Source: an uncultured virus (IMG/VR IMGVR_UViG_3300034073_003178) (Duplodnaviria; Heunggongvirae; Uroviricota; Caudoviricetes). Taken from it: a DNA stretch of 64,000 nt. A program made the translations under genes and the position numbers. Of the stretch, positions 1 to 49,200 are shown piece by piece. The notes under the pieces are model-generated. The model did not search any database. It saw only the letters and a program-made list of their open reading frames with translations, and was not told the DNA's origin. Numbering within the stretch: the first letter of the stretch is position 1; the number at the start of each line of letters is the position of its first letter. Where the stretch lies: positions 1 through 64,000 of IMG/VR virus record IMGVR_UViG_3300034073_003178, one strand, 5' to 3'.

Positions 1-318
1 ATCGTCAATTCTAACGAAATCGTTTTCAAATAGGTGAATACCTTTAGGCAGGTTCTCTTTAAGAACATCCCAAGTTCCTTCGTAATTATATCCGTATGCT
101 TCGTGATTTCCCGTAACATACAATACTTGGTCAAAGTTGTCGGCACACTTCGTTAGAAAGTCTTGATAGACCTTGCGGAGGGCACCATCTTTCTTGAAAT
201 GACGAGCACAGAGAATGTCCCCACCCAGAATGAGAACATCACCTTCTCCCAAGTCAGGAACTCCGTGCCCCTGTTCGCAACACTCAAGGTGTAGGTCTGA
301 TACTACTTTGACTTTCAT
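1..318 (-). CDS. Calcineurin-like metallophosphoesterase, 3' end outside the window
   Basis: Not in the ORF track. Manual translation from ATG at 318 gives MKVKVVSDLHLECC...LILGGDIL...VLYVTGNHEAY, with the DxH, GD and GNHE metallophosphoesterase motifs. Confidence 0.85.
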   Translation of the reverse strand, partial: MKVKVVSDLHLECCEQGHGVPDLGEGDVLILGGDILCARHFKKDGALRKVYQDFLTKCADNFDQVLYVTGNHEAYGYNYEGTWDVLKENLPKGIHLFENDFVRIDD

Positions 319-454
319 TAATCTCTTTGATTTTTACAATCTTATTATACAGCAGCTTGGCGAAGATTTGGTGAGGTGGTGTGCCACTTTCTAGACTGGA
401 ATTCGTAGCAATATCCCACATTATATTCAGTTTTTCATCGTTTAAAACATTCAT
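284..454 (-). CDS. Small hypothetical protein (about 56 aa)
   Basis: ORF track 284..472. The likely start is ATG at 454, which overlaps the RlpA-like stop (ATGA). Confidence 0.5.
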   Translation of the reverse strand: MNVLNDEKLNIMWDIATNSSLESGTPPHQIFAKLLYNKIVKIKEINESQSSIRPTP

Positions 455-7631: not shown

Positions 7632-7646
7632 AATGAATAATCTATT

Positions 7647-8276: not shown

Positions 8277-8279
8277 TGT

Positions 8280-8750: not shown

Positions 8751-8758
8751 TTAAATAA

Positions 8759-9526: not shown

Positions 9527-9596
9527 ATAATGCTTCTATAAAAAGGTTTTCTCATAACATTTAGTTCAGTTAAATTTCTCCAGATGTATAAGAATT

Positions 9597-10802: not shown

Positions 10803-10813
10803 TTTTTAATAGA

Positions 10814-13087: not shown

Positions 13088-13131
13088 AAAACCTCATTTA
13101 TTTTGTGTAAAATTTAATATCTAATAAAGTC

Positions 13132-13845: not shown

Positions 13846-14834
13846 TTAAAAATAAAATCTCTTATAAAATTTTTAGATGCTTTAACCAAATATGCGGCAT
13901 TATCTTGATATCCAAAGGTTATTAGATAATCATTTTTATATTCTGCCATTCCTACAGCAAATTCAATTTCTGCATTTATAAAAGAAAATTGTTTAGACAC
14001 TTTTACGATATTCCAATCTTTGTCCCATACAACAAAACGATGACGATAAACTCCATCTTTTCTACCTGCAGGACTTTTTGTAAGATATGTTTCATGAGTT
14101 AAGCAAAATCTATAATCATCTCCAAGAGGAATAATCTGAGAACCACCTCTTAAATCAATAGTTCCAAAATCTTTCCAATCTTTTTTTATAATACTGGTAG
14201 TAGTGTTACTTTCAATGTCATATTTTACGATTTCAGTTCCATTTGTCCATTTTACATAATGATATGGCATGTCAAGAATAGGCATCCAATTCTTATTGCA
14301 ATATTCTTCGTCTGGAGGTGGAGCAGGAATGCGATGTTGATTAATTTCTTTTACACCATTCTCCGTAATTTCTAGTTCGGAAAGTTCCATTCTTCCCGTT
14401 CCAATTGTATCTAAATCTCTTCTCACTCCAGTTATGTAAAGTTTGTCGTTCCAACGGACAATACGACAGTCTTCTAATCCAACAAAATCCCACAACTCTT
14501 TATCTGGGAACTTTGAAGTATCAATATAATGATATTTTTTAATTCTCATATCATCATCCATTTCGCACATAATATTCCATGTGCGGAGATGCATATCATT
14601 TTCTGGATGAATATAAACTAAAGGTCCCCAAGGGTGTTCAAATTTTTTCTTTTCTGAATGATATAGTGTATAATTGATATTTCTGAGATTTACTAAAATC
14701 TTATCTCCATCAATGTAAACCGAAGGATTTGTAAGTGCCGGCCCTTTTAGTTCATTTGATGGAATAATTAAAGGATAAATGCTTCCTCCATTTTGGAGAG
14801 CAATTTTGACGAAGTTCATTTCATCTGCTGTCAT
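13842..14834 (-). CDS. Beta-propeller glycoside hydrolase/phosphorylase-like protein (GH130-like)
   Basis: NPSV, GLEDCRI, KNWMP, LRGGSQ, YRHRF, IEFAVG and FGYQD motifs. Confidence 0.65.
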   Translation of the reverse strand: MTADEMNFVKIALQNGGSIYPLIIPSNELKGPALTNPSVYIDGDKILVNLRNINYTLYHSEKKKFEHPWGPLVYIHPENDMHLRTWNIMCEMDDDMRIKKYHYIDTSKFPDKELWDFVGLEDCRIVRWNDKLYITGVRRDLDTIGTGRMELSELEITENGVKEINQHRIPAPPPDEEYCNKNWMPILDMPYHYVKWTNGTEIVKYDIESNTTTSIIKKDWKDFGTIDLRGGSQIIPLGDDYRFCLTHETYLTKSPAGRKDGVYRHRFVVWDKDWNIVKVSKQFSFINAEIEFAVGMAEYKNDYLITFGYQDNAAYLVKASKNFIRDFIFK

Positions 14835-29425: not shown

Positions 29426-29434
29426 TTGAAGATA

Positions 29435-29764
29435 TTAATTGAGGGTTTCTAAGATGCTTGCGACAAATTTTAAATTGCTGGCATTACTACCTGATAATAC
29501 TAATTTATCTCCACTTTCAAGAACCAATTTTCCAGAAAGAAGATTCGCAGTATCATTTGCTGAAATTGGAAATTCTTTTAACATTTCAGTATCAGTTGAT
29601 GATCTGCGATGAGTTAGAGAAACATCTTCATTTGTTGATCCGATGTTTGCAACTTGCGCTAAAAGAACAACACCTGTATATCCAACAGGAGCAGTATAAA
29701 TTGAAGTTGCACTTGTGCCTACAACTGAAGTAACTGTTTTAAAAACATTAAGTGCTAATGCCAT
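29435..29764 (-). CDS. Small structural protein, paralog of 38844..39203
   Basis: ALNxFxT, IYTxPxG, VxLxQVxN, GxLxLE and SxLET are shared with 38844..39203. Confidence 0.8.
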   Translation of the reverse strand: MALALNVFKTVTSVVGTSATSIYTAPVGYTGVVLLAQVANIGSTNEDVSLTHRRSSTDTEMLKEFPISANDTANLLSGKLVLESGDKLVLSGSNASNLKFVASILETLN

Positions 29765-29768
29765 TGTA

Positions 29769-32657
29769 TTAATCTCCTCCTAATGCGAGTATGAATGGTG
29801 TCACTGTTGAGAATAAACTCTTAGAATAAAATGTTCCTGAAATAGTTCCAGTTTGCTGATTAATAACTACTCCATCGCCAATTCTGAAATTTCCAGATTG
29901 ATCAGTAGAAGTGAAAACGACCAGTCCTCCATTAAGAGCACTAGTTTCATTTTCTTGAATAGGAACACCTCCTACAGAAGGAAGGGCCGTATTAATGTTT
30001 GTTCCAGAACCAATATATTCAAGAGAATGTCCTGATGCTAATATTCTACTTTGCTTAAAGAATGGAACAGCAGTTCCTACTCCAACAGCATAAGGAACAT
30101 TATCACTTAAAGTTATTGTGCAAATTCCTGCAGATACTGGAGTTGATTTTTCAATTATATAATAAGTAGGAAATATATTTGCAGTACCAGTTGCAGTATT
30201 AATACCCACATTCGGAGAATCAAAAGTTACTTTTGGAGTGGTAGTATATCCTCTTCCATTAGAGATCATTTCAACTGAAACTATAGACCCATCTCTTACT
30301 TCTGCTACAGCAGTTGCAGGAATACCCCAAGAAGTTTCTGGATCTTCAATAGTAAGTTCTACAGTTCCAGTGTAACCACTTCCACCTGAAGTAATACTAA
30401 TACCATTTATACTATAAAAAAGTCTATCAAAATAAACCACTTGACCATCAAAAGGACGAACTACATTAATTTTTACAGTTCCTCCAGAATTATAAGTATG
30501 CGGTAAAGTAGATGTTCCAACATAAACACTAAATGTAGTACTAGCAGCAGAAACAGCAGGAAGAGCATTTGCACCGCTAATGTTACCAGCATTCAATCTT
30601 GAAGTAACAATTCCTACAAGATTATCAATAAATGATTGAACATCTGCACAAGAAGATGGATCTGTATTAGAATTAGTTAATGGATCTGCGGCAATTGTTA
30701 AATCTTTATTATTCAAATTATTTGTAATGGCAAGTTTCATCAATTCTCTTGCCGTAGTAAATCCAACAATTGTTTGAGGAATTTCACTTGAAATTCCAAC
30801 AATTAATGACGATCCATCATAACTGAAATAAGATCTAGTAGTTTCAATGATATTCTTAGAAGTAAAATCTCTTACATCTGTAGAAACAGCATCAACAATA
30901 TAACCAATATCTCTTAAACATTTTGATCCTCCTTCAGTCAAAGTTCCATAATTATCCTCACTTGAAATAGAACTTAACGAACCTTGAGAAATAACTGATG
31001 TTACAATTCCAACTAAGTTATCAATATTACTTTGAACATCTGCACAAGAATTTGGATCAGTATTACTACCAGTCAATGGATCTGCAGTAATTGTTAAATC
31101 AGTGTATACTGCACCAGAAAGAGTATTTGTAATCGCATCTTTCATCAATTCTTTTGCTTCCGAGAAAGCATAAATTGATTCTGTTTCTTCACCAACTAAT
31201 CCATTCGTAATTGGTACTCCAGCACCATCAAAATATTGCCTTACGAATTGTCTTGAATATCTATTGCCTCCAGTAAATACATCTGTGGCGATTGCATCTA
31301 CAAAATATCCAAGGTCTCTTTTACACTTGTTTATTGTAGTGGATATGCCAGGATAAGCATTACTAGTATTAGTCCATGCAGTATCAACAATAACACTCTT
31401 GTTTTTTATAATCAAACGATATGCATCATAATATCTTGATCTGGTATTTGTTTGACTATCACCTCTAAAATAAAAATCTGGATATTCTACTGCAATGGCT
31501 GCCAATGATTTATCTTGTATTTCTCTTCTATTTGCCTGAATTAAATTATAAGAATCTACATACCTACCTGGAGCAACCGTAACAGTTTGAAAAACATATC
31601 CTTTATTTCCTGAAGGATAAGTTACAATTCCTGGGCCAGAAGGACAAGTAAATGCCAATCCTACAATTGACACACCCATTCCAACTGAGAAATTATGAGC
31701 AGAGTCTGTAGTTGCAGTTAAAATACCAGTAGCATTATCATAAGTTGCTGATGTTATGTTTAAAGTTGGAGTGTTTAAATCTATGGCAAACTCAAATGCA
31801 TTTGCATCTTCTGCTTGTGCAACAGAACCTGTATATTTTAAAGGGCCTACTCCGTCAGAAACTAAAGCAAAATTGCCAAAAGAAGAGTTAGAATTAGTTA
31901 GATCACAAGCAGCTCCAGTTCCACAAAAAACTGCAATATCATTACAAATTGTAAACATGGATACCAATTGAGCATAACCTTCATTGGTAATTGAACAACC
32001 AATCCCACCTTGATTATATTGAGTATATGAATCAAGAACCATAGATTTAAGAGGCCCTATTGCTTTAGAACCATCAATTTTTAATCCAATTGAATTTGGA
32101 ATAAAGTTAGTGCAGTTCTGTATATAAGGTGATTGATTAAAATATCCAATTTGATTTGGATTAAAAGCAAAAATTGCCTTACCTGGATTTAAAGTTCCAG
32201 TATAAGACATTTCTGCCACATAATTTCCATTTGAAACATAAAATAAATCTTCATTTGCATTTTGTGGAGAAACTGATACTTCTCTTAAACTTTCTCCAAC
32301 AATAGATACCTGTTCGGGAATAACAAGAGGGTTATTTTCTACATAAGATCCAGCACTAACTTTAATAATTGTTCCTGTTCTTGCTTCTGTAAGTGCTGCT
32401 CCGATTGTTCTTTTTGCGTCTCCGAGTTTTTTTCCTGTGTTTGTGTCAGTTCCATCTTGAGTTACATAGAGAATATTAGTAACAGTTATACCTGCACCAA
32501 TGGAAACAATATCAGTTCCTATTCCCGCTCTTTCTCTTGCAATAAAAAGCTCGCCATCATTTGTATTTAAAGCTAACTCCCCCAAAGGCAACTGATCTAC
32601 CGTGGGTTTTTTTCCAGGAACTGATGACCGCTTTATGCGGATAATAGGTGCCGCCAT
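29769..32657 (-). CDS. Large virion structural protein with nested phycobiliprotein-like helical domains
   Basis: N-terminal IRIKRS..GELALN; beta-helix-like SPYIQNCTNF..DSYTQYNQGG; KCKRDLGY and KCLRDIGY helical repeats; paralog of 39205..43194. Confidence 0.75.
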   Translation of the reverse strand: MAAPIIRIKRSSVPGKKPTVDQLPLGELALNTNDGELFIARERAGIGTDIVSIGAGITVTNILYVTQDGTDTNTGKKLGDAKRTIGAALTEARTGTIIKVSAGSYVENNPLVIPEQVSIVGESLREVSVSPQNANEDLFYVSNGNYVAEMSYTGTLNPGKAIFAFNPNQIGYFNQSPYIQNCTNFIPNSIGLKIDGSKAIGPLKSMVLDSYTQYNQGGIGCSITNEGYAQLVSMFTICNDIAVFCGTGAACDLTNSNSSFGNFALVSDGVGPLKYTGSVAQAEDANAFEFAIDLNTPTLNITSATYDNATGILTATTDSAHNFSVGMGVSIVGLAFTCPSGPGIVTYPSGNKGYVFQTVTVAPGRYVDSYNLIQANRREIQDKSLAAIAVEYPDFYFRGDSQTNTRSRYYDAYRLIIKNKSVIVDTAWTNTSNAYPGISTTINKCKRDLGYFVDAIATDVFTGGNRYSRQFVRQYFDGAGVPITNGLVGEETESIYAFSEAKELMKDAITNTLSGAVYTDLTITADPLTGSNTDPNSCADVQSNIDNLVGIVTSVISQGSLSSISSEDNYGTLTEGGSKCLRDIGYIVDAVSTDVRDFTSKNIIETTRSYFSYDGSSLIVGISSEIPQTIVGFTTARELMKLAITNNLNNKDLTIAADPLTNSNTDPSSCADVQSFIDNLVGIVTSRLNAGNISGANALPAVSAASTTFSVYVGTSTLPHTYNSGGTVKINVVRPFDGQVVYFDRLFYSINGISITSGGSGYTGTVELTIEDPETSWGIPATAVAEVRDGSIVSVEMISNGRGYTTTPKVTFDSPNVGINTATGTANIFPTYYIIEKSTPVSAGICTITLSDNVPYAVGVGTAVPFFKQSRILASGHSLEYIGSGTNINTALPSVGGVPIQENETSALNGGLVVFTSTDQSGNFRIGDGVVINQQTGTISGTFYSKSLFSTVTPFILALGGD

Positions 32658-35727: not shown

Positions 35728-38700
35728 TTAGATCTTATTTTCTAAATTTTCAATTCTTACTTGCTGTTCTTTAATTGCTTCAATTAAAACTCCTACTAAG
35801 TTTCCATAAGAAACTGATCTTAATCCATTTGAATTCACTTGTACAACTTCTGGAATAACCTTTTCCAATTCTTGAGCAACAACACCAATTGAAGGTAAAT
35901 TATTATCTATCCAATTGTATCTAACTCCTCTTAATTGTTTTACAATGTCAATGGAATTTTCAATGGTTTTTATGTTTGTTTTCTGAGTTTCATCTGACAA
36001 TGAATTAAAGATAGTTGCGGATAGAGTGCCAGTTGAAGGATTGAAAAATAGTTTTGAAGATGATACATTTGCTTGAGTTATAACTCCAGAAGTAGCATCA
36101 TCAAAAATTAAATACCTTGATGCAGCAGTAGTAGTATCATCTGAAATTGTAAGACCTCCATTATTGGATCCTTGAACACCCTGATTTGCTATTCCTTGAA
36201 CACCTTGATTTCCTTGAGTACCTATTATTCCTTGAGAACCTTGAGTACCTTGAGAACCTTGAAATCCAAAAGATCCGACTACACCTTGATTTCCTTGAGT
36301 ACCAAAAGTTCCTTGAATACCTTGAGTGCCTTGAGAACCTTGAGAACCATTAGAACCTGATGTTCCGATTGTTCCTTGTGCTCCTGAGGTTCCTTGTGCT
36401 CCTGAGGTTCCTTGTCTTCCTTGAGTACCTTGAATACCTTGAGAACCTACTGCACCTTGAAGGCCTGTAGATCCTACAGATCCAGATAGTCCTTGATTTC
36501 CTTGAGTTCCTTGTGTTTGACCAGCTAATCCTTGAGATCCTTGATTACTCAAACCTTGAGTACCTTGTCTACCTTGAATTCCTATTGTTCCTTGAGAACC
36601 TTGAGTACCTTGACCACCAACTGCACCAAATAGACCTTGGATTCCTTGAGAACCTATTGTTCCTTGAGAACCTTGAGTACCTTGACCACCAACAGCACCA
36701 ACAGCACCAAATAAACCTTGTGTTCCCTGAGTACCTATTGTTCCTTGAACACCTTGAGTACCTTGACCGCCAACGGCACCAAATAAACCTTGAGTGCCTT
36801 GTCTACCTTGAATACCTATTGTTCCTTGAGAACCTTGAGTACCTTGACCACCAACAGCACCAAATAAACCTTGATTTCCTTGAGAACCAATTGTTCCCTG
36901 AACACCTTGAGCACCTTGACCACCAACGGCACCAAATAAACCTTGAGTGCCTTGTCTACCTTGAATACCTATTGTTCCTTGAGAACCTTGAGTACCTTGA
37001 CCGCCAACGGCACCAAATAGACCTTGATTTCCTTGAGTACCTTGATTACCCTGCAATCCTTGAGCACCTTGACCACCAACAGCACCAAATAAACCTTGAG
37101 TGCCTTGTCTACCTTGAGAACCAATTGTTCCTTGAACACCTTGATCTCCTTGACCACCAACTGCGCCAAATAGACCTTGATTTCCTTGAGTACCAATTGT
37201 TCCTTGAACACCTTGATTACTTAGTCCTTGAGAACCTTGATTTCCTAATAGGCCTTGAAGACCTTGATTGCCCTGATTACCTTGAATACCTTGAGCACCT
37301 TGCCCACCAACGGCACCAAATAAACCTTGCGTTCCCTGAGTACCTTGAGCACCTTGATTACTTAAACCTTGCGTTCCCTGAGTACCTTGAGCACCTTGAT
37401 TACTTAAACCTTGTGTTCCCTGAGTACCTTGAGATCCTTGAGTACCTTGTCCACCTACACCACCAAATAATCCTTGAGTACCTTGTAAACCTTGAGATCC
37501 TGATGTACCTTGATTACCTTGAACACCTTGATTACTTAAACCTTGAACACCTTGTCTACCTTGAGTTCCTTGTGTCCCTTGTCCTCCTTGCAATCCTTGT
37601 GTTCCCTGATCTCCCCGACTCCCTTGTAAACCTTGATTACCTTGAACACCTTGATTACCTTGTAATCCTTGAGTTCCTTGTAATCCTTGAGTTCCTTGTA
37701 AACCTTGATTTCCTTGAATACCTTGATTTGATAATCCCTGAACACCTTGAAAACCTTGAGAACCTATTGTCCCTTGAGATCCTGTTGTTCCTTGATTTGA
37801 TAATCCTTGAGTACCTTGAGTACCTTGTGATCCTTGAGTACCTTGAGTACCTTGAACACCTTGATTTGATAATCCTTGAGTACCTTGTCTCCCTTGCAAT
37901 CCTTGAGACCCTTGGGATCCTTGCAGACCTTGAGTACCTTGTAATCCTTGTGTACCCTGAGTTCCTTGTAATCCCTGAACACCTTGATTTGCTAAACCTT
38001 GTGTACCTTGAGTTCCTTGGGGGCCACTAATGTTTCCGACATTAATCCAAGTTCCACCACCACTATAAACCCAAAGTTCATTTAAAGCATCATCTAAAAC
38101 AGCATTTCCAATTTCTGCACTAGGAAATTCTGTATTTAATAATATTTGAGGGTCGTTTGGAGGATCAACATTCGCATCTTCAACATATCCTATAATTACT
38201 GTTGCTTGTCCTGCTGATCCTTGAATTCCTTGTCCAATAATCCCTTGAGTACCTTGAAGCCCTTGAGTACCTTGAACACCTTGATTACTTAAACCTTGTG
38301 TTCCCTGAGTGCCTTGTGTTCCCTGAGTACCTTGAGTACCTTGAGTACCTTGATTTGATAATCCTTGAGTACCTTGATTTCCCTGAAGACCTTGTGTTCC
38401 CTGAACACCTTGATTTGCTAAACCTTGTGTACCTTGAGTTCCTTGAGATCCCTGAACACCTTGATTTGCTAAACCTTGTGTACCTTGTAAACCTTGTGTT
38501 CCTTGTAATCCTTGTGTTCCTTGTAATCCTTGTGTTCCTTGAACACCTTGGAATCCTTGAAGACCTTGAGTTCCTTGAGTTCCTTGAATTCCCTGAGTCG
38601 TAATGTCTAATGAAGGAACCCAAAATCTTTCACCAGTATATCCTTCAGCTGCAATTAAAACATAATGTTCTACAGGAACAGGTTGTCCTGGGGTAAATGG

Positions 38701-38841
38701 ATTATTTCCTATAGAGGAAACTCCAACAAGAGGATCGCCTAAGTCTGGTTCTGCTTGTTCTAACCCAAGATATTCGTATCTATCAGTTGTTATTCCTGAT
38801 TGATCAAATCTTTTAACTCTTCCTGAAATGTACTTTGTCAT
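35728..38841 (-). CDS. Collagen-like tail fibre with C-terminal peptidase S74 chaperone
   Basis: GXQ runs including repeated GLFGAVGGQ; C-terminal SLSDETQKTNI..GVVAQELE..VSYGNLVGVLIEAIKEQQ. Confidence 0.88.
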   Translation of the reverse strand: MTKYISGRVKRFDQSGITTDRYEYLGLEQAEPDLGDPLVGVSSIGNNPFTPGQPVPVEHYVLIAAEGYTGERFWVPSLDITTQGIQGTQGTQGLQGFQGVQGTQGLQGTQGLQGTQGLQGTQGLANQGVQGSQGTQGTQGLANQGVQGTQGLQGNQGTQGLSNQGTQGTQGTQGTQGTQGTQGLSNQGVQGTQGLQGTQGIIGQGIQGSAGQATVIIGYVEDANVDPPNDPQILLNTEFPSAEIGNAVLDDALNELWVYSGGGTWINVGNISGPQGTQGTQGLANQGVQGLQGTQGTQGLQGTQGLQGSQGSQGLQGRQGTQGLSNQGVQGTQGTQGSQGTQGTQGLSNQGTTGSQGTIGSQGFQGVQGLSNQGIQGNQGLQGTQGLQGTQGLQGNQGVQGNQGLQGSRGDQGTQGLQGGQGTQGTQGRQGVQGLSNQGVQGNQGTSGSQGLQGTQGLFGGVGGQGTQGSQGTQGTQGLSNQGAQGTQGTQGLSNQGAQGTQGTQGLFGAVGGQGAQGIQGNQGNQGLQGLLGNQGSQGLSNQGVQGTIGTQGNQGLFGAVGGQGDQGVQGTIGSQGRQGTQGLFGAVGGQGAQGLQGNQGTQGNQGLFGAVGGQGTQGSQGTIGIQGRQGTQGLFGAVGGQGAQGVQGTIGSQGNQGLFGAVGGQGTQGSQGTIGIQGRQGTQGLFGAVGGQGTQGVQGTIGTQGTQGLFGAVGAVGGQGTQGSQGTIGSQGIQGLFGAVGGQGTQGSQGTIGIQGRQGTQGLSNQGSQGLAGQTQGTQGNQGLSGSVGSTGLQGAVGSQGIQGTQGRQGTSGAQGTSGAQGTIGTSGSNGSQGSQGTQGIQGTFGTQGNQGVVGSFGFQGSQGTQGSQGIIGTQGNQGVQGIANQGVQGSNNGGLTISDDTTTAASRYLIFDDATSGVITQANVSSSKLFFNPSTGTLSATIFNSLSDETQKTNIKTIENSIDIVKQLRGVRYNWIDNNLPSIGVVAQELEKVIPEVVQVNSNGLRSVSYGNLVGVLIEAIKEQQVRIENLENKI
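36165..38595 (-). repeat. Coding GXQ collagen-like repeats
   Basis: 9-nt periodicity, interrupted by one globular insert at about 38030-38210. Confidence 0.9.
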
Positions 38842-38843
38842 TT

Positions 38844-39203
38844 TTACTGCTTAGCTGTTTCTAAAACACTCAAAACTAGTTCTAATGTATTATTCTGATT
38901 TGCTTTTATTTTAATTACATCATTTGTTTCCAATGCTAATCTACCATCAGGAATGAGATTTATTCCATCATTTGGAGGAATTGAAATTTCATTTGCAAAT
39001 TTATAATCAGCAGGACTTTCAACTGATCTAGAATGAACTGCAGTTACTTTATAAGAACCTAGTGAAGCACCGGAAGAAACATTTGTAACTTGCGAGAGTA
39101 TCACAATAGATGCTACTCCAATAGGACAGGTATAGATTCCTACCATTTCGGTAGTTATTCCTACTCTTATTGTCCTAAATTTATTTAATGCAATTTTTGC
39201 CAT
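38844..39203 (-). CDS. Small structural protein, paralog of 29435..29764
   Basis: Shared motifs and the same position within the repeated module. Confidence 0.8.
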   Translation of the reverse strand: MAKIALNKFRTIRVGITTEMVGIYTCPIGVASIVILSQVTNVSSGASLGSYKVTAVHSRSVESPADYKFANEISIPPNDGINLIPDGRLALETNDVIKIKANQNNTLELVLSVLETAKQ

Positions 39204-39204
39204 T

Positions 39205-42200
39205 TTACTTACTTATTCCTAGGATTAATGGTGTTACTGTATTTAACAAACTTTGACTAAATGCTCTACCACTAATAGTTCCAGTAATCTGGTTAATAAC
39301 AATATCATCACCAATTTTAAAGTTACCTGCCTGATCAGTACTGGTATAAACAACTTCACCACCATTGAGTTTTACAACCTCATTTTCTGGAATTAATACA
39401 CCACCTAAAGCAGGTTTTGCGGTGTTGATATTATTTCCAGTTCCAACCCATTCAAATGAGTGAGAAGATGTGATTTGTAAACTTAAACGACTAAAGTAAA
39501 CTGTTGTTCCTGCACTTACTGTATTATTTAGATTTTGTTGAAGAACTACTGTAGAGACTCCCGCAGAAGGTAATGTGGCACTTTCAATTGTATAATATGT
39601 TGGATATACTGTAGCCTGAGCAGTTGCTTGAACTGCATTTGGTCCTGGTGGAGGTGGAGCAATTGTAATAGAAGGAGCAGTTCTATACTGACTTCCAGTA
39701 GCAATTACATCAATAGAAACTACCTTTCCATTTACAACATTAGGAGATGCTTCTGCACGAATTCCAAATGCATCAGGAGGAGGTGCATCTATTGTTACCA
39801 ATGGTGGATTTAAATCAGAATATCCTCCTCCTGGATTATCTACTTCAATTGTTTGAACAATATAGAATAATTCTCCAAAATAAAGTGCCTGACCATCATA
39901 AGGACGATAAGAACCTATTCCAGATATAATTACAGTATCTTGTTCAACAGCAGCATTTTGTTCTACTACACCAGTATATCTGTAAATTGATTTTGAAGTA
40001 TTATCACCAACACCATCAGCAACTAATCCAAGTCTTCCGAAAGATGAGTTGGAGTTTGTAATATCACACTGACCACCAGAACCAGTAAAGATTGCAATAT
40101 CATTACAGATGGTAAAAATTGAAACTAACTGGGAGTAAGCACCATTTGTAATAGAAACTCCAATACCACCTTGATTATACTGAGTATAAGAGTCAACACT
40201 CATAGAACCAGTAACACCAATATCAATTTGATCTCCAGGTTCTGCTTCAAATCCATTAACCTTCATTCCAATACTACCTGGAACAAAGTTAGTGCAGTTT
40301 CTTACATAAGGGCCTTGAGTAATTGGTCCAACTCCAGGTGAATAAGGTGGTTTTACATATCCTCCATCAACATAAGTATGAGGAATAGTAGAAGGCCCAA
40401 CTTTTACCACAAAAGTTGTTCCTGCACCTATAACATCAGTGACTCTGAATTTATAACCTTCATTTCCAGTTGGATATATTGTAGTTGTTCCAGCACCACT
40501 TGTGCAACTAAATTCCAGATCTCTCAAAGTAACTACATCACCAACTCTTACATATGCACCTGGAGCAGTAATTGTAGTAATTCCTGATGTGTGATCATAA
40601 ATTGCATTATCAACAGAAACTGAACGATTTACTACATACCCTGTTCCAGATACATATTGGCGAGCAATTGTTGATATTCCAATATTGATAACGATAGAAT
40701 TATCCTCGTTCATTCTATCAACATAATAATCATAACCAAGTTGATCAGTAGTATAGGATTTAATAACCGGAGTATCAAGTAAATAAGTATAAAGCAAATC
40801 TCTTACTTCAATTATATCACCTTTTTTAACATTTAATGGTGATGCTGGTATAATAGTTATTTCTCCAGTTTGTTCATCATAAGGAGCATCAGTAATTTGA
40901 ATCTTTCCAGTAAAACCGATTCCACTGTTTCCAGGATAAGAAGTTGTAATTCCAGATTCAGATCCAAGTCCAACAATCGTGGTAACAACTCCTACACAAG
41001 AACGAATTGCAGAAACTACATTTGAACATCCATTGATTGCATTGTTAAATCCTGTTTCAAAATCAGGTTGCATTCCCAAATCTTTTACTTGATAGAATTC
41101 ATTTTGGAAACTTGTGTACTTTTGTACAGTTCCTCCAGAAACATAAGTGTGAGGTAATGTTGATTGACCTACAACAACTTCAAAACTGTCAGAGTCTATT
41201 ACATCTAAAACATTAAATACATATCCATAAGCACCAGTTGGATAAGTTAAAGTAAGAACTCCTCCATCGGAAGGGCAAGTAAAACCTAATCCAACAATTT
41301 TTACTGCATCATTTTGATTAAGATTATGATTTTCTGCTGTAATTGTTGCAACTCCAGTAACATTATCATAATCAGCAAATATTACATCAGTAGCAACTCC
41401 TACAGGATAACCTCCCCAAGTGCAGTTATTAACTACTGAACGAGCAACATTGAAGGAATAGTCTAAAGTTGCAATAGTTTGCTCAACTTCTCCAGGATTC
41501 TTTAAAATTTGAGGTATTAAATTCCAATCCTCATCATAGTAAATTTCTCCTGCTCTCACACAACGAAAATTACCTCCTCTTGTAATGTCAAAACAGATTG
41601 CTCTCCAAATATCTTTTACATCATCTGCACAGTCTTGACTTTCAAGAGTAACACCAAATTCAATTGAAGGTGCCTGTTCAGTTCCTAATCCAACAATACT
41701 AGTAACAATTCCTGCAAGAGTTTCAATTCTTACAATTGTATCTCCACAACCACCAGGAACTAGAATTGGAGAATAACTACTAATATCTTGAGTTAAAGAA
41801 GTATATTGATCTGGATAAGACTCATTATTAATTACGAAGGTTACAATACCAACTGCATGTTCAATAGCATCTATAGTTGCCTGACGAACACTATAACCAT
41901 TTACATCAGTCCCTGTAATATGCTGAAGTGCTCCGGCATTATCATAGTAAGATAATCCAGCACCAACAGATTTCTTATTACTTCCTGCCTTTAAATCATA
42001 AGAAATTGAACGAAGAATATCTTTAATATCATCCTCACAATCTCCAGGAACAGTAGGTACTACAAATGCTGGAGACTTATAATCTGTAGAAGTGAGAAAT
42101 CCAATAGTTTCTGATGCAATATAATCTAGATTTAAGTCTATAAGTCTTGCAGCATCTTGTTCTCTATGATTTCCTGCAAATCCACTAAATCCACTTGTTA

Positions 42201-43194
42201 AAAATCCAACTGATTCTTTTGCAATATAATCAAGATTCAAACGAATCATTCTTGCACCATCAAAAAATCTATCTACTTGAACACCTTCAAGAGGTTCAAA
42301 TGAAACGATAGCAGATCCATTGGTCATTTCAGGCCCAATGAAACTCATGTCAGTAATATGACATCCATTATTTACATAGAATAAATCTAGATCTGGAAAT
42401 CTTGGAGTTACTACACAATTTCTTAATTCTGTTCCTTCAACAGAAACTGTCTTTTTCAAAACTATGGGGTTTTCTTCTACATAGACACCAGGATATACTT
42501 TAATAGTATCACCAAAGTTTGCTATTTGAGCTGCGGCTTTAATCGTTCTTTTTGAATGATTTTCAGACAATCCTGTATTAGTATCATCACCATTTTGAGT
42601 AACAAATATAGTTTTTCCAGTAGGTTTATATGCATCTACAGTAACTATTCCCTTTCCAGGATCTTGTGATGCATCAATTTGAACACCTATTCCAGGAACA
42701 ATCTGAGTTACAATTCCTGCTAAATTTATACCATCTCCAAAATATTCAAGAGCAGATACACTTCCGCCAAATAAACCTGTAGTAGAAACTTCAAGAGATC
42801 CTTCAACTACAGCATTATTTTGTACAAAAATATCACTTCCAACAGTAACACTATTTCCTACGGAAATATTACTTGCAACTGTAGCATCATTTGCTACAGT
42901 AAGATCATTTCCAATACTAGCAGATCCAGATGCATTTAAATTTCCATCTAGTCCTATACCACCACCAACTACTAAAGATCCAGTAGTTGTTGAAGTTGAT
43001 TGTTGAGTGTTAGAGAAATTTACTAATCCTTCAACATCTAAATCACCTTCAAATATACCATCACCCGCAACATCTAAAGTACTTTGGGGATTAGTGGTTC
43101 CTATACCAACTCTATCCGCAACCCCATCGGCATAAATTAGATTTTCGTCAACTTCAAGACCATTTTTTACGACAAAATTCTTGTTTATACCCAT
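39205..43194 (-). CDS. Large virion structural protein with nested phycobiliprotein-like helical domains
   Basis: MGINKNFVVKNGLEV N-terminus; CEDDIKDILRSISYDLKAG and CADDVKDIWRAICFDITRGG helical repeats; PYVRNCTNF..DSYTQYNQGG; paralog of 29769..32657. Confidence 0.75.
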   Translation of the reverse strand: MGINKNFVVKNGLEVDENLIYADGVADRVGIGTTNPQSTLDVAGDGIFEGDLDVEGLVNFSNTQQSTSTTTGSLVVGGGIGLDGNLNASGSASIGNDLTVANDATVASNISVGNSVTVGSDIFVQNNAVVEGSLEVSTTGLFGGSVSALEYFGDGINLAGIVTQIVPGIGVQIDASQDPGKGIVTVDAYKPTGKTIFVTQNGDDTNTGLSENHSKRTIKAAAQIANFGDTIKVYPGVYVEENPIVLKKTVSVEGTELRNCVVTPRFPDLDLFYVNNGCHITDMSFIGPEMTNGSAIVSFEPLEGVQVDRFFDGARMIRLNLDYIAKESVGFLTSGFSGFAGNHREQDAARLIDLNLDYIASETIGFLTSTDYKSPAFVVPTVPGDCEDDIKDILRSISYDLKAGSNKKSVGAGLSYYDNAGALQHITGTDVNGYSVRQATIDAIEHAVGIVTFVINNESYPDQYTSLTQDISSYSPILVPGGCGDTIVRIETLAGIVTSIVGLGTEQAPSIEFGVTLESQDCADDVKDIWRAICFDITRGGNFRCVRAGEIYYDEDWNLIPQILKNPGEVEQTIATLDYSFNVARSVVNNCTWGGYPVGVATDVIFADYDNVTGVATITAENHNLNQNDAVKIVGLGFTCPSDGGVLTLTYPTGAYGYVFNVLDVIDSDSFEVVVGQSTLPHTYVSGGTVQKYTSFQNEFYQVKDLGMQPDFETGFNNAINGCSNVVSAIRSCVGVVTTIVGLGSESGITTSYPGNSGIGFTGKIQITDAPYDEQTGEITIIPASPLNVKKGDIIEVRDLLYTYLLDTPVIKSYTTDQLGYDYYVDRMNEDNSIVINIGISTIARQYVSGTGYVVNRSVSVDNAIYDHTSGITTITAPGAYVRVGDVVTLRDLEFSCTSGAGTTTIYPTGNEGYKFRVTDVIGAGTTFVVKVGPSTIPHTYVDGGYVKPPYSPGVGPITQGPYVRNCTNFVPGSIGMKVNGFEAEPGDQIDIGVTGSMSVDSYTQYNQGGIGVSITNGAYSQLVSIFTICNDIAIFTGSGGQCDITNSNSSFGRLGLVADGVGDNTSKSIYRYTGVVEQNAAVEQDTVIISGIGSYRPYDGQALYFGELFYIVQTIEVDNPGGGYSDLNPPLVTIDAPPPDAFGIRAEASPNVVNGKVVSIDVIATGSQYRTAPSITIAPPPPGPNAVQATAQATVYPTYYTIESATLPSAGVSTVVLQQNLNNTVSAGTTVYFSRLSLQITSSHSFEWVGTGNNINTAKPALGGVLIPENEVVKLNGGEVVYTSTDQAGNFKIGDDIVINQITGTISGRAFSQSLLNTVTPLILGISK

Positions 43195-43253: not shown

Positions 43254-46200
43254 TTAACCACAATATAAAACTGCAGTGACTAAGAATGATCCATCATCAT
43301 ATACTCTTTGCGGAATAGTGCTAGTAACTTTACCAACTGTTTTTGATCTAATAATATCATCATCTTGAACTCTTCCACAACCATTACCATCAGATTCAAT
43401 AAGATCGCCAATTTCTAAAGTTTGTCCAGATGCAATACGAATAAAATAGTTACCAATAGCAGCACAATTCATATCATTCCAAGTATTAACCATTTTTTCA
43501 GGAATGTCATTATCATCCCATCCCAGAAATACACCAAAGACCTTCTTAGATGCTGGAGTGTCACTAATTTTTACACAAACATGTTTATTTAAATCATAAG
43601 GAATTTCTTCTTCATTTTTAATAATTGCATCATAAATATTTCCTTCATATCCAATTTGTATAGTATCTCCTGCTTTTAATGACCCCTCATATGCCGAGAT
43701 TTTTTCTTCTCCATTTACATTAAATACTGCAACTTTCCATTCAATCAACTTATTTACCGTTTCTAAAATAGTTCCCGGCAAAACATCAGGTTTACTTCCA
43801 TCTTCAAAACGACCCCAGTGAGTACCTAAGAAAGTTCCATAAGATATAGTTCCTCCTGCATTACTAATAGTACCCTCATTATTCCCATTTCTAAACCACC
43901 AAATTAAAGCTCCATTATTACTTCTACCAATACGAACTGGAACCTCATCAATTCGGTTAATAGAAAATACCCCATCTCCTAATCTTGATGCGTTGGTATT
44001 ACCTGCATTTGCAGCTGGATCACCAACATCTGTCCCTACAAATAAATCATTGACAGTTAGAATTCCATTGATACTCTGATCTCCTACTGTATAAACTCCA
44101 TTAGTAACAGAACCAGCATTACCAGTAATACTACCAGAAATTGTGCTAGTGAAAGTTTTAACTCCACCAATAGTTTGGGGTCCAGAATCTCTTACAACAG
44201 TTGAATCTACTTGAATAGAATCAGCATTAACAGTAATACCACTACCCTGACCAATATTCAAAGTTACATCTTGACCATTTAAAATTCCCCCACCAGTTAA
44301 TCCATTACCAGCAATTACTGATCTATTAAGATTAGTGGAAGTAGTTGATGTAGATGCATTTATTGCATTAGTTATTGTACCTTGAATTGTATTAGTAAAA
44401 GTTTTAATTCCACTAATACTTTGATTATCAGATCTTGTGACAACTACATCAGTATTAATACCAACAGTAGTACCACTCACAGTAATACCACTACCTTGAC
44501 CAACACTTAAAGTTACATTTTGATTATTTAAAATTCCTCCACCAGTTAATCCAACACCAGCGATTACTGATCTAGTAAGATTAATTGCAGTAGTTGCAGT
44601 AGTTGCATTTCCATTAACATCACCATTTAGTACACCTATAATTCCATTAGAAACTGTAAGTTGTCCAGATCCGCTCAAGGACATTAATTCAACTTGTCCT
44701 CCATACCATTTAAAGGAGAATCCACTTTCATTTTTTGGAATAGAATTCCATAGAATATTACTACCAATACCAACAGCATAATCAACATTATTAGTATCTA
44801 AAGAATCATAATATACTATTCTGGTTCCGTTACTTCTAGTAGTAAATGTTGGAGCATTTGTTCCTAAAGTGCTGGTTCCAAAATTAATAATATCAATTGG
44901 ATTTCGGAGAACAATAGTTCCAAATCCAACTGTTGGATCTATTTCAATATCAACATCAATACCAAATCCGTTAGGATCTCCAACAAATTTTAGTTTGTCT
45001 ACAACTCCTTCAAGAATGTTTGATCCATTTTCTACACCTGAATAAATTGATATTTGAGTTCCTAAATCTCCAACATATCCCCAAGTTTTCCAACGATCAT
45101 TTGTCGTATAAACCCAACCAATATTTTCGCCTTCATTTGGAGAAGCACGATAAATTATATCACCATAATTTCCTGAAATAGATGGTTCTTCATTAGAAAT
45201 AGAATATCTTCTAGAAATTTCTTGATCACCCTGTAAGAATATAGAAGGTACTTCAATTCCTTCAGGAGAATAAGAAGTTAATTTTTCATTCAGAACAATT
45301 GGGCCATTAAATTCTGATACCACATTGTTATTTTTTCCACCACCAACTCTAATAGATCTATCAATTACAACATCATTTGTTTTTACAATTTCATTTGTAG
45401 AACTTTCATCCCCGGCAAAAGTTTGAATTGGAGTATCAAAAACTTCTTCTTTTCCAGTTGCAGAAGTAGTTTTCTTATTTCCAGCATAAAAATCTCCAGA
45501 ATCATCTGTTCCAGAATAGTAAACAACACCACCATTATATTTTAAAGATTGTGATAATATTTTTTCAGTATCAGATAATTTTCTATCTTGTCTTTCGGGG
45601 AATGCAGTTGAATAATTACCAGGGCCAAATCCGACATATTCAAAGGTGTGCCCAGAAGCACGAATAATTGTATTTCTTCTAAATTCAATTGGAATAGGTT
45701 TAATTCTTTGAATTACAGATCCAGATGAGTGACTTGATCTAACAGTTCCAAATTGTGCTCTATAAACAGAAACATTACTATTGACAACTGGAGATTTTAC
45801 TCTTAATACTTCTTGATTAATCTTGAGGTAATCCCCTATTTTTAGTCCAGTATTTTGAGCATTTGTAATTGAAATTATATCAGAACTAGATGATACTAAA
45901 CTATTGTTTGTTAAAATAAGTTTATCATAGATATATCTACCTCTATCATTACCTCTTTGAGAAGTATTATAACCATATGGATGTACAATTCTAGTTCCAG
46001 TTGTTGCTGGAGTTGTAGTTGAAGTTCCAATTCCTACAATTTCAAATGATGTTGATGAGAGAATTTTACTGACTGATACATCTTTATTATAAAAAGATTG
46101 TGTAAATCCATCAAGTCTAATTTTTTGATTTAGATTTAAATCATGAGAAGATAAAGTCGTAACAGTTGCAATTCCAACTATTCTATCATAAGTAAAATTA

Positions 46201-49200
46201 GAAACTGTAAGTGCTATTCCAGTTACAACTGCTGTAGAATCACTTGATACTAAAGATGTACTAAAATTAGTAACTATTCCAGCAGATGAAACTACTATTC
46301 TATTATTTGCAGGAATAGATGTAATTCTATAAAGATTATTATATCCAGTATTAATTCCAGTGTATCCAGAAAGACTTACTACTTCATTAATATTATTACT
46401 AATAGAAGTTACAGATATCGTTGCTGGTACAAATCCTGTAGTTGTTCCAATACCAGATCTAGGAAGAATTGATAATGTATTACCAACTGCATAGCAACTT
46501 CCACCATCCATAATTTGAACGGAAGAAATATTTCCAGTTGAATTTACATCAATTGCTACTTTAGCACCAATTCCAGTAGCAGATCCCTGTAAATCCACAC
46601 CATAATAAGTTCCAGGAACATAACTTGATCCAGCACTTACTATGCTAAAGGAATTAATCTGTGAAAGACCATGATCTATAGTTGTGTAAATTGTATGAGA
46701 AGTTCCTACTGAATCTGAAACTATTGCAGTTACTCCAAATCCAACATTAAAGTCGCTAATGAATTTGGTTAAAGTTTCTTTTGTAATGCTATTTTCTGAA
46801 CTATCAAGAGTTACTTCACCAATAATATCCAACTTAGCAAATGAAACTGCTTCTTTTGGATCTGATGATGGATTATCTCTATCAGTTTGAGGATAAAGAT
46901 TTTTAATTGGTTGAGATAATTTAATATTATTGAAAGGTGATGCAATAGGAGAGACTGAATTATTTAAAATGATCAATTCATAAATTCCGTCTTGCTTTTC
47001 TGGAATATATTCTTGAATAGTTTCAATTGTATAGAGTTTGTAAGTATTTACAGTTTCTTTTGGTTGGAAATATGGAAGATTTAAATCTCTTGTTGTAGTA
47101 TTGTTAGAAAATAAACCAGGATTAATTATAATATCAACTACAAATTGCTTAGAATTAGTAATTCTCTTTACAGTGTAAGTTCCATTATATCCATCGGGAA
47201 CTACATTTTCTATTTTTACTTTTGATCCAACAAGCAGTTCATGATCTAATTCACTAGTTATTATCGCTTCACCCGCATTCCAAGTTGCATTTGAAATATA
47301 TTTTGGACTTCTTAAATCGTTTACATTCTGTAAAGATTCATCTCCAAAGTAAATATCAATTTCATTTTCTCCAAGTAGATTCTTATTACTTTTTTGTAAA
47401 ACATATCCATCAACAGGAGGTCTTGCTACAACAGAGGAATCTTTTGGAATAACATATTCAAATTTATAAATGGTATCTTCTATATTTCTTCTATCTGGAA
47501 TTCTTTCAATATAAGTTTTGTTGGTAGTTTCTACTCCAGTTTTAGATAAGAGATGAGTATATAAAGTACTATTTGGTGCAACTGTTATATACCAATTAGA
47601 CTTAATAGAATCCCACTGAACAGGATGACCTATTTCTCCAACATTTTTATCAGAAACTCTACTAACAACTCTTAGGTTTCCACCTTTTGTATTGAGATTT
47701 ACAAATACATTATTCAAAGCAGAATCAAATGTTTCTGCTAACCTAATTTGATTATTTCCTCCAGTAGTTACATCAATAGCATAATAAATTTTATCCTCAA
47801 TTCCATCAGGAAGATACCCATTATCAGAAACTACTCTTACTTTTTCCCCGGTTTGGAAAGTGTCAGTTTGAGTAAAGTTTATTATTCCTGAAGAGATACT
47901 ATTTTCAGTATTATTGTTGATTCTTGCAACATTAAATGATTTTTCATAAGAAGTAGTTGTATCTGGAATTACAACAGATGCTGTTGAATTTTCCAAATAA
48001 AGAGTTTCATTTTTGGCAGCGCCTACTCTATATCCATCTAATAATGTTCTTGGAGGATTGTTAAAGTCCTTCTCATCGTATAAGTATAATCTTGTAGTTG
48101 TAGCAGCTCCAGCCGCACTAGTTGTAGTTAATCCAACATCAATAGAATTAAACTCAACAGTTATTTTTTGGGACTCTATATCTCTAGGAGGAATTATTTT
48201 AGTGATAAATCCTACATCATCTCTAGGAAAAGCATCTCTACTAAATCCATCAGATACGAGTGCTTTAGATCCAAAGTTTGAGTTAGAGTTTGTGATTGAA
48301 TAGTCTCCACCACTTTCCGCAAGGAATTGGTTAGCAAATCCAATAGCAAAGATACTTACAAGTTGACAGAAACCACCTTCAGATACCTTGATGTGATAGT
48401 TTTCATATTCAGGTTTAAATCTTGCTCTTGAGTTTTTGTAGAGATTTGGAACTGCAACAGAATCTCTATATACCCCAGTATTTTTATCATATAAAACAAA
48501 AGCATTATCATCCTTTTGAATACCAATTCCAGTGAATTGGGCAACAACCATACTCTTAAATCCATCTGCCTTACTTCCATCAGCATGAAGTCCGCACATT
48601 CCATAAACGGATCTCAATGATACATTGAAGACATATGGAGAAGCAGAAGATACTGTATCGGTTACAATACTAATGTTTGCTCCAAATATTTCAGGGGAAG
48701 CAACTTGAGGTACAATACTTGACTTATACTGGAATTGATTTGTTCCTAATACTCTAAAAACAGTAAATTGTCCAGAATATCCAGACTCATTAATTCCAGA
48801 AACCTGGATTGAAGTATCAACACTGATTCCTTCAAGAGGTTCTGTAGTTGTTACTGTGATTATATTGGTTGGAGTGAATCCATTTCCTGCTCTTATCTCG
48901 GAGATTTGGAAATCTTTTCCTCTTGATCCTACAATTCTAAATTCATCTACAACTGGTTGAATATCTACTGCAGCGCCAGTTGAATATATTACATCATCAA
49001 TTGGTCTACCAGAAGAATCTCCATATACTAGAGATATTTTTTCATAGTACATTTCAAGATCAGTTCTTGATGTTGATATGGACTGATTAAAAATATCAGT
49101 GATAGCAACATCATTAACCCCATCAGCATATTCAAAACAAGTTAACTTGTGATGTGAAAATGTTGGTGTATGCTTTAATGTTGTATAATCTTTATATGCA

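Follow-up and report, generated by a model that had tools for sequence, protein, structure and literature searches.

The locus described here raises the question of whether a virion protein can contain relatives of the phycobiliproteins (PBPs), and what may have become of the pigment-attachment site in a copy whose surroundings have changed in charge. The protein concerned, P0001, is encoded on the minus strand of an uncultured virus (IMG/VR record IMGVR_UViG_3300034073_003178) by an open reading frame (ORF) of 1329 codons located in the window, i.e. the whole 64,000-nucleotide stretch of DNA that was analysed; the source record comprises 72,347 bases, with a completeness of ~34% (CheckV). A 962-residue paralogue, P0002, is encoded in the same window (Table 1). 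PBPs are familiar as light-harvesting proteins of cells; more recently, small bacterial globins that bind bilins have been added to them. The original prediction, made from the sequence, had placed PBP-like domains with an altered pocket (CxDD instead of CxRD) between 40963 and 42270, which corresponds to residues 309-744 of P0001. We conclude, with a probability of about 0.9, that residues 304-754 represent two domains (termed here the outer and the inner domain) of the PBP branch of the globin fold, and that they are distant, true homologues of PBPs.

Kinship with phycobiliproteins in sequence and fold

All five sequence strings quoted in the original prediction are present in the minus-strand translation of 39205..43194 at the residues assigned to them, namely DAARLIDLNLDYIASE (347-362), CEDDIKDILRSISYDLKAG (386-404), GGCGDTIVRIETLAGIVTSIV (481-501, including C483), CADDVKDIWRAICFDITRGG (522-541), and NGCSNVVSAIRSCVGVVTTIV (721-741, including C723). 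The phycocyanin-beta string that had been cited for comparison is also genuine: CLRDMEIILRYVTYAIFAG occurs in 15 of the 215 PBPs from cyanobacterial loci that served as our PBP reference, and 8 of 19 in-register positions are common to it and CEDDIKDILRSISYDLKAG by manual count. The module of P0002 was used as the comparison and as the search query for the module family. Against 1.84 billion representatives, it matched 680 clusters (50% identity) at E<=1e-3, with up to 33 matched stretches per protein, and jackhmmer analysis of 270 proteins gave 1850 domain matches. P0001 is represented in this family by three jackhmmer domains (7.8e-48, 1.6e-26, and 9.6e-13) and by matches to hidden Markov models (HMMs) of parts of the module. 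The first two of these domains place the modules of both paralogues in one family, which upholds the earlier argument that the existence of a divergent copy supports homology.

Two profiles were used for comparisons with known proteins: A2, derived from an alignment of 17 diverse modules, and A1, derived from close homologues. A HMMER search of 177,635 distinct PDB sequences with A2 yielded 152 matches at E<=10; every one of the best 60 of these 152 is a PBP, and 16 have an E-value below 1e-3. At the top stands a C-phycocyanin alpha subunit (E 9.7e-5), in which the family motif KCxRD.GY falls on KCARDIGY and the family Cys on the Cys of KCARDIGYY. The conserved Ala, Asn, Pro, Lys-Cys, Arg-Asp, Gly-Tyr, and Gly-Gly of the family fall on identical residues of C-phycocyanin alpha; two of these columns, Asn and Pro, also show conservation in the PBP profile. 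When 343 non-redundant modules were compared with the 215 PBPs using hhalign, a match with a probability of 94.6% (E 6.8e-8, score 51.7) was obtained that spans helices A/B and E and places C-x-R-D upon C-L-R-D, whereas the reversed template scored 12.4 and 40 column-shuffled templates scored <=17.2, in agreement with the view of the original prediction that the resemblance reflects real homology and not chance. Maximum accuracy (MAC) realignment gave a collinear alignment that extends across the entire domain (helices A, B, E, G, and H), again with Cys on Cys. The profile of P0001's own lineage gave weaker matches to PBPs in the same register (E 5.5e-4, and E 2.6e-4 for the inner domain), with C386 on Cys82. 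Cys386 thus falls on the bilin-attachment Cys of PBPs (beta Cys82, alpha Cys84), and Cys522 corresponds to it via the family profile.

An AlphaFold2 (AF2) model of residues 300-760, based on 61 aligned sequences (the query fragment and 60 homologues at 58-94% identity), reached a predicted local distance difference test (pLDDT) score of 87.9 and a predicted TM-score (pTM) of 0.83. In a VIA-align comparison with 48,161 PDB representatives, the top eight rows for this model are all PBPs, including phycoerythrin beta (5aqd_M, Z 14.5), the bilin domain of ApcE (4xxi_A, Z 13.9, root-mean-square deviation [rmsd] 1.9 Å, 117 aligned residues), and allophycocyanins, and sensor globins rank below them at Z ~11. 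When the inner domain was folded alone from alignment A2 (pLDDT 87.3), the top eight rows among the same 48,161 representatives were again all PBPs (Z 14.2-12.1, rmsd 2.1-3.1 Å), and residues 1-163 of the model matched PBP residues 30/32 to the end. Non-haem sensor globins (the RsbR N-domain, globin-coupled sensors, and the globin domains of photocobilins) have the same general fold and come next, with 4uiq_A and 4zva_A at Z 11.3, 3zta_A at Z 10.9, and the photocobilins 8j2y_B and 8j2w_B at Z 10.4; they differ in standing below all eight PBP representatives and in being absent from the best 60 of the 152 sequence-profile matches. Foldseek listed 37 matches for the inner domain, all of them PBPs, the best with E 1.6e-3 and TM 0.57/0.55, and with TM values of up to 0.60. 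Identity to PBPs is ~11-17% in the structural alignments and about 15-20% over ~120 columns. Both structural methods assign the inner domain to the globin fold of PBPs, with helices A, B, E, F', G, and H, whereas the N-terminal X-Y helical hairpin, which mediates alpha/beta pairing in PBPs, is absent: the single-domain model aligns only from PBP residues 30/32, and the helices upstream of it are the A-B hairpin of the outer domain. Structure prediction and profile-profile comparison, both proposed earlier as checks, thus yielded significant PBP matches.

Several results weigh against this kinship. The PBP family PF00502 (gathering score 22.2 bits) was unmatched in the whole protein at E<=0.1, and at E<=10 in three fragments of P0001, one fragment of the paralogue, and the six-frame translation of the 72-kb record; Pfam-A gave only weak unrelated rows for the whole protein and the fragments, and a phmmer search of the PDB with the whole protein gave two weak acyltransferase-like rows and no PBP. 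In the PDB, the A1 profile found no PBP, its sole match being the start of a beta helix (E 0.031). After removal of its inserts, the outer domain aligned to PBPs by hhalign at E 0.32, and its C-terminal part alone at E 0.62; because these values are insignificant, the PBP kinship of the outer domain is transitive, i.e. established through the module family. None of the matches listed by Foldseek for the single domain reaches E 1e-3, and with the 461-residue model Foldseek did not find PBPs, the barrel alone being matched, to endosialidase and E1 domains. Furthermore, mostly helical models can reach Z ~14 in VIA-align without known kinship, and the fold alone is thus not decisive. The last point and the silence of PF00502 would be in keeping with a chance or convergent resemblance, in which an unrelated helical bundle had acquired a C-x-[RD]-D motif. 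However, two independent lines of evidence, sequence profiles and predicted fold, place only PBPs on top, the hhalign score of 51.7 far exceeds those of all 41 controls, the alignment runs collinearly over helices A, B, E, G, and H, and the conserved residues of the family coincide with those of C-phycocyanin alpha. We therefore regard coincidence as exceedingly unlikely and conclude, from the agreement of profiles and fold, that the module is a true, distant PBP homologue. No PBP class is singled out as its closest relative, since C-phycocyanin alpha is closest by sequence and phycoerythrin beta, ApcE, and allophycocyanin by fold.

Nested architecture of the 1329-residue protein

P0001 matches phrog_3442 (2.6e-292) and phrog_17885, annotated as 'tail fiber protein' (2.6e-263). 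It consists of an N-terminal fibre-like part, a right-handed beta-helix body split by an insertion of ~650 aa, and a C-terminal domain common to it and the paralogue (Table 1). In BLASTP comparisons, the two paralogues are 48% identical over 231 aa (the C-terminal domain), 58% over 125 aa, and 43% over 122 aa. Because the two beta-helix pieces adjoin in the paralogue and lie ~650 residues apart in P0001, the PBP-like region is an insertion into the beta helix; as the whole array is inserted in the beta-helix body, it must project from the fibre as an arm. The piece preceding the insertion (residues 190-300) also resembles, in a weak profile match (E 0.031), the region where the beta helix of a xylosidase (3vst_A) begins. 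A precomputed label for the Pel9A-like beta helix (PF22842) is attached to P0001 and some close homologues, and no PF22842 was found in our Pfam scans of the whole protein (E<=0.1) and of the six-frame translation (E<=1).

Table 1. Features of P0001 and its paralogue in the window. AF2 positions are in model numbering.
Feature	Residues	Coordinates	Strand	Evidence or remark
P0001, tailspike/tail-fibre-type virion protein, 1329-aa ORF	1-1329	39205..43194	minus	PHROGs; BLASTP to 962-aa paralogue
Beta-helix body, N part before the insertion	190-300	42295..42627	minus	43% identity to paralogue residues 47-167
Outer PBP-like domain, N-terminal A-B helix hairpin	304-337	42184..42285	minus	AF2 helices 7-20 and 22-34
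Inner PBP-like globin domain (helices A, B, E, F', G, H), in the outer B-E loop	339-505	41680..42180	minus	AF2, VIA-align, Foldseek, hhalign
Inner helix-E motif C386-E-D-D, preceded by D385		42028..42039	minus	hhalign and HMMER alignments
Cys483, directly before inner helix H	483	41746..41748	minus	Same place in the G-H loop as beta-type PBP Cys153
Outer domain, helices E, F', and G	512-593	41416..41661	minus	jackhmmer domain 506-632, E 1.6e-26; part HMMs E 520-554 and G 567-592
Outer motif D-C522-A-D-D		41620-41631	minus	Helix E of the outer domain
Beta-barrel in the outer G-H loop, with conserved FTCPS Cys640	596-695	41110..41409	minus	AF2 strands 297-395
Linker and outer helix H	697-754	40933..41106	minus	jackhmmer domain 682-745, E 9.6e-13; part HMM H 721-744; AF2 helix 425-448
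Cys723, directly before outer helix H; Cys733, inside the helix	723; 733	Cys723, 41026-41028	minus	61-sequence alignment
Beta-helix body, C part after the insertion	955-1079	39958..40332	minus	58% identity to paralogue residues 170-281
P0002, 962-aa paralogue, nested pair of canonical type (K-C-K-R-D, K-C-L-R-D)		29769..32657	minus	jackhmmer domains 1.6e-73 and 1.5e-34; part order N N E G H E G H

The original prediction of PBP-like domains was borne out, and their arrangement was refined: the two domains are not in tandem, and one lies within the other. Part HMMs were used for the A-B hairpin (N) and for helices E, G, and H. The order NNEGHEGH was found in both P0002 and P0003, which are 94% identical in the queried region, and longer nests such as NNNN(EGH)4 NNN(EGH)3 in P0125 and a run of nine N parts in P0122 were also observed. 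P0001 reads NEGHEGH, its first N falling below the threshold but being recognisable by eye and by hhalign; this hairpin (residues 304-337) is a sequence repeat of the hairpin of the inner domain. An outer construct joining residues 304-337, 512-593, and 697-754 is collinear with the profile of a single module (hhalign, 150 columns, E 5.9e-29, score 159.6), as is the C-terminal part alone (121 columns, E 2.4e-23, score 126.5). Along the AF2 model, two helical hairpins are followed by four helices, three helices (220-240, 244-251, and 270-289 in model numbering, corresponding to outer helices E, F', and G), the beta domain, and a last helix. Three haemoglobin rows in VIA-align span model residues 5/6..447 with 121-129 aligned residues and Z ~7, which fits an outer globin-like domain built from distant segments. 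As judged from the sequence, the inner domain thus sits in the B-E loop of the outer domain, and the barrel in its G-H loop; this nesting is defined by part order, profile alignment, and residue ranges, and not by contacts. In three metagenomic proteins of 4799-6382 aa (P0149, P0151, and P0156), the parts alternate in the order E-N-E-N, with few G matches and no H matches; either the topology of this subgroup is different (tandem or otherwise split) or its last helix is missed by the part HMMs.

The barrel in the outer G-H loop resembles the endosialidase of phage phi92 (VIA-align, 4hiz_A, Z 9.5, rmsd 2.2, 82 aligned residues; Foldseek, 4hiz_C, probability 1.00) and the FCCH domain of E1 (4p22_B, Z 9.4). 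Two more barrel-type repeats, with the pattern YD..TG..TI ... FSC/FTC ... YP.G ... HTY..GG, occur at 40300-40900 of the window (residues ~770-950), after the nested pair and before the beta helix resumes; the second corresponds to BLASTP segments against the paralogue, and the first was read from the translation. In P0002, the nested pair itself seems to be inserted inside a barrel of the endosialidase/E1-FCCH type (residues ~298-361 and ~702-729), whose N-terminal part, YDNATG...YVFQTVTV, precedes the pair and whose C-terminal part, FSVYVGTSTLPHTYNSGGTVK, follows it. This would be a further level of nesting, as suggested by the sequence and BLASTP segments.

Compared with the known PBPs (PF00502: CpcA/B, CpeA/B, ApcA/B, and the ApcE bilin domain), the domains of P0001 share the same globin-type fold from helix A to helix H. 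A further likeness exists to ApcE, since the large insert of the module lies in the B-E loop, where ApcE also has its long loop; the 4xxi_A chain, with 147 residues numbered 48..239, is consistent with this. There are also differences. PBPs are free subunits of 160-180 aa that bear the X-Y hairpin and function in the context of the phycobilisome, whereas the domains of P0001 lack the hairpin, are nested in a 1329-aa virion protein, have no phycobilisome context, and carry Asp in place of the Arg at +2 and the Lys at -1 relative to the Cys.

The cysteine site, its acidic variant, and possible ligands

Among the 1635 modules that cover helix E, the motif reads CxRD in 1318, CxDD in 207, CxED in 43, and CxKD in 12. 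Most copies contain K-C-x-R-D, as PBPs do, and this majority resembles C-phycocyanin alpha in possessing the motif in full. The Cys is conserved in 98% of the modules, Asp at +3, Asp at +14, and Tyr at +30 in 99% each, Asn at +20 in 85%, and Arg at +2 in 81%. The family is like PBPs in having the Cys at the alpha-84/beta-82 position, Asp at +3, Gly at +18, and, as in beta subunits, a second Cys before helix H. This second Cys is kept in 46% of the family modules and is placed like Cys153 of beta-type PBPs, both residues directly preceding the first aligned residue of helix H in a low-confidence tail of the MAC alignment.

Both copies in P0001 read D-C-x-D-D, with Asp in place of the Lys at -1 and of the Arg at +2 (D388 and D524 at the latter position). 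CXRD, with its Arg at +2, is consequently not found in P0001, and the Asp at +3 is present in both copies (D389 and D525); Asp389 falls on the bilin-contacting Asp position of PBPs in the hhalign and HMMER alignments, and C47 and D50 are invariant in A2. The near-invariant residues of the family are also kept, as C386/D389/D400/N406/Y416 in the inner domain and C522/D525/D536/N542/Y552 in the outer domain. In the 61 aligned sequences, C483 and C723 are found in 61/61, C522 is invariant, and C386 and C733 are conserved in >=90% and 57/61, respectively. The motif at 386 is C-x-[DE]-D in every form listed (CKED 16, CEDD 14, CADD 13, CSDD 9, and others), and that at 522 is CADD in 39, CSDD in 8, and CAKD in 5 sequences, among others. 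The altered pocket of the original prediction is thus real, but it is a trait of a lineage rather than a one-off and extends to the loss of the Lys before the Cys; the Cys positions singled out there are conserved among homologues.

Filtering at 50% identity leaves 27 acidic modules (from 21 proteins) and 515 basic modules. In this set, only -1 and +2 stay tightly coupled near the motif (K and R versus D/E/N and D/E), and the acidic type is more acidic at -34, -28, and +47 and more basic at -37. Lys or Arg at +5 and +9 is a trait of the P0001 lineage and not a rule of the family. Raw counts had suggested a family-wide charge swap between +2 and +9 (R with D versus D with K/R), and this was lost after filtering. 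In another lineage, the motif is C-R-E-D, the Arg being shifted to +1.

A retained ligand site may be marked by the unpaired, nearly invariant Cys together with the Asp, and the likeliest ligand would be a linear tetrapyrrole from the infected cell, attached to the Cys through a thioether linkage like that of PBPs. A covalent or metal ligand is favoured over a packing residue because a single unpaired Cys is kept in 98% of divergent copies of a protein that is located outside the cell, and a bilin is the leading candidate because the same Cys and the following Asp hold the bilin in PBPs and because the host cell is full of bilins. In the acidic variant, the propionates might be held differently, by Lys at +5, Arg at +9, or a cation, or a different bilin might be bound. 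For this variant, we tentatively read the sequence as retaining a ligand site for which a bilin is the foremost candidate, at somewhat less than even odds; the odds would be somewhat higher for the canonical CxRD copies. The bilin biosynthesis-associated globins (BBAGs; Rockwell, Martin and Lagarias 2023, PMC10151467) are alike in being distant PBP paralogues outside light harvesting, and differ in that they are small cellular proteins encoded beside haem oxygenase and bilin reductase genes, whereas the phage module is viral, multi-copy, and nested. The CXRD motif of BBAG-1 and BBAG-3 holds the attachment Cys as in PBPs, and bilins are self-attached without lyases; BBAG-2 is without CXRD, yet binds biliverdin (PMC10151467). 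Loss of the Arg therefore need not abolish bilin binding in the superfamily, and in the sources consulted CXRD is described for PBPs and BBAG-1/3 but not for the sensor globins (PMC10151467).

A number of observations count against a bilin in P0001. C.RD is present in 215/215 PBPs, and both basic residues beside the Cys are acidic in P0001. In PBP structures, the Lys and Arg beside the Cys pair with the propionates of the bilin; because these propionate-pairing residues are acidic in P0001, canonical bilin binding is unlikely there. CpeT (PF06206) and the bilin reductase family Fe_bilin_red (PF05996) gave no match in the 72-kb record, itself ~34% complete, in a search that covered these two families. 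The case for pigment binding is moreover drawn only from homology and conservation. Finally, up to 36 domain matches per protein are found in proteins of 2,000-7,900 aa, which fits a structural role.

Such long arrays would be expected if the PBP-derived fold were a rigid, insertable brick that sets the length or shape of a purely structural arm and binds no ligand, the conserved Cys, Asp, Asp, Asn, and Tyr forming a buried polar network or helix caps and CxDD and CxRD being electrostatic flavours of the same brick. The matched N and C runs produced by nesting are likewise expected of a length-setting device, the Arg at +2 is replaceable in several independent ways (CxDD, C-R-E-D, and CxKD), and the G-G-N at the helix end resembles a cap. 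However, retention of an unpaired Cys in 98% of the 1635 modules, which are ~20-30% identical, would be unusual for a scaffold residue outside the cell (the second Cys is kept in 46%), and the conserved Cys, Arg, and Asp are those that serve the chromophore in PBPs (PMC10151467). We hold an arm of this kind to be a serious possibility, although one below an even chance. The coupled flip of charges at -1 and +2, together with the greater acidity at -34, -28, and +47 seen after 50% filtering, would also suit a site that binds a divalent cation from sea water or a basic protein surface through D-C-x-D-D, with the Cys as a leftover or a metal ligand. K-C-x-R-D modules, such as those of the 962-aa paralogue, would be candidate partners in a manner like the alpha/beta pairing of PBPs, and the window indeed encodes both types, in separate fibre cassettes. 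Within each of the two proteins, however, the modules are of a single type, so that pairing would have to be inter-protein; some giant proteins mix the types in one chain, and the module counts are phylogenetically non-independent. A cation or partner site is accordingly judged improbable. Structural disulfides between residues 386 and 483 and between 522 and 723, stabilising the virion protein outside the cell, are very unlikely: the four Cys are invariant or nearly so in the 61 sequences, and virion proteins do face an oxidising medium, but in the family the second Cys is kept in only 46% of modules as opposed to 98% for the first, and in PBPs beta Cys82 and Cys153 carry separate chromophores far apart.

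If the retained-site reading, with a bilin as ligand, were extended to the particle, cyanophages might carry covalently bound bilins on their fibre proteins, forming a virion-borne light sensor or pigment array; we rate this extension as rather unlikely. The modules would then acquire their bilin inside the infected cell, either through self-attachment or with the help of a lyase of the host or the phage (phage CpeT, for example), and the basic and acidic types would be two chromophore or tuning classes, or partners that pair like alpha and beta subunits. The module and cpeT/pebS are both largely confined to T4-like cyanophages. The retained-site reading itself also draws on published accounts, in which CpeT is reported in 31/153 and PebS in 9/153 cyanophage genomes (PMC10452541) and several cyanomyoviruses show light-dependent adsorption, the benefit of phage bilin genes being called unclear (PMC2984593).

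Distribution in cyanophages and gene neighbourhood

A tblastn search of 50,697 phage records with a 212-aa stretch that includes the inner domain identified 329 module-bearing records (Synechococcus 274, Cyanophage 46, Prochlorococcus 8, and Marine 1), so that all 329/329 are cyanophage or marine-virus records; the 193/193 records found with a tandem-type family member belong to the same groups. Among 301 cyanobacterial genomes, the A2 profile gave only weak matches (19.7-32.3 bits) to frames of 154-245 aa in 64 genomes and no multi-module protein, and the best of these matches is a 162-aa ORF of the C-phycocyanin-alpha type. The long tail fiber of S-SCSM1 and structural proteins of S-ShM2, S-SSM4, S-RIM2, and MED4-213 contain the same module and belong to the same PHROG families as P0001, and the module was also matched in the S-SCSM1 protein A0A6M2ZHG9 (BFVD) at E 1.7e-29. 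Cyanophage proteins with the module are annotated as tail fiber, short tail fiber, baseplate wedge, or virion structural protein, and a PBP or globin domain is unmentioned in the annotations of the records seen. They differ from P0001 in sequence, with <=55% identity (S-SCSM1, over 75% of the 212-aa query), and vary in the number of modules and in the mix of CxRD and CxDD. In a full-text literature search that covered few subscription journals, no description of a PBP- or globin-like domain in phage fibres was found.

The ORF of P0001 is flanked by tail and baseplate genes, which encode four collagen-like fibres, the 2171-aa tail fibre, a baseplate hub with lysozyme, and a tail lysin. At the DNA level, its gene matched only Synechococcus phage S-SKS1 (76.6% over 13% of the gene), and a tail protein near the ORF is <=36% identical to proteins of Synechococcus phages B23, S-B05, S-SKS1, and others. 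These data indicate that the record represents a divergent, uncultured cyanophage-like virus.

Two parallel three-gene cassettes were recognised on the minus strand, at 35728-43194 and 25037-32657. Each comprises a beta-helix protein with nested PBP-like modules, a small protein homologous between the cassettes, and a long collagen-like fibre of the Gly-X-Gln type. The lengths of these proteins are 1329, 119 (38844-39203), and 1037 aa in the first cassette, which has the acidic module type, and 962, 109 (29435-29764), and 1462 aa in the second, which has the basic type. Long frames antisense to the collagen-like genes (36513-38030, 20433-21665, 22727-24073, and 26293-27312, all on the plus strand) are most likely by-products of repetitive Gly-X-Gln coding and not genes. 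Directly upstream of P0001, the 2171-aa tail-fibre protein (43254-49769, minus strand; phrog_529, E 0) carries BppL_N, an N-terminal motif of lower baseplate proteins, between residues 1854 and 1876; this points to a joint from which a distal trimeric tip would start. Elsewhere in the window, the G+C content is 0.28-0.29 in three of the four 2-kb bins of 6001-14000 and 0.36 in the bin 10001-12000, the remainder being mostly 0.32-0.43; this low-G+C stretch contains a glucosyltransferase-like ORF of 1031 aa that extends from 4536, a methyltransferase-like ORF, and several ORFs without a named function.

The module thus represents a branch of the PBP superfamily that resides in the virion fibre proteins of viruses infecting PBP-bearing cells, occurs in hundreds of cyanophage genomes, and has kept the pigment-attachment residues. 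Even if no pigment is bound, a fibre arm built by inserting a globin fold recursively into itself is an unusual architecture. The contribution of the window is a matched pair, canonical and charge-reversed, in two fibre cassettes of one phage, and this pair is naturally suited to comparative assays. The finding bears on why cyanophages carry genes for bilin synthesis and bilin lyases and why some of them adsorb only in light, and it provides named residues for both questions: Cys386, Cys483, Cys522, and Cys723, and Asp385/Asp388 as opposed to the Lys/Arg of the paralogue. Virion-borne bilins, if they exist, would explain the light-dependent adsorption of cyanomyoviruses and would also explain why pebS, pcyA, ho1, and cpeT are kept by phages of hosts that lack phycobilisomes.

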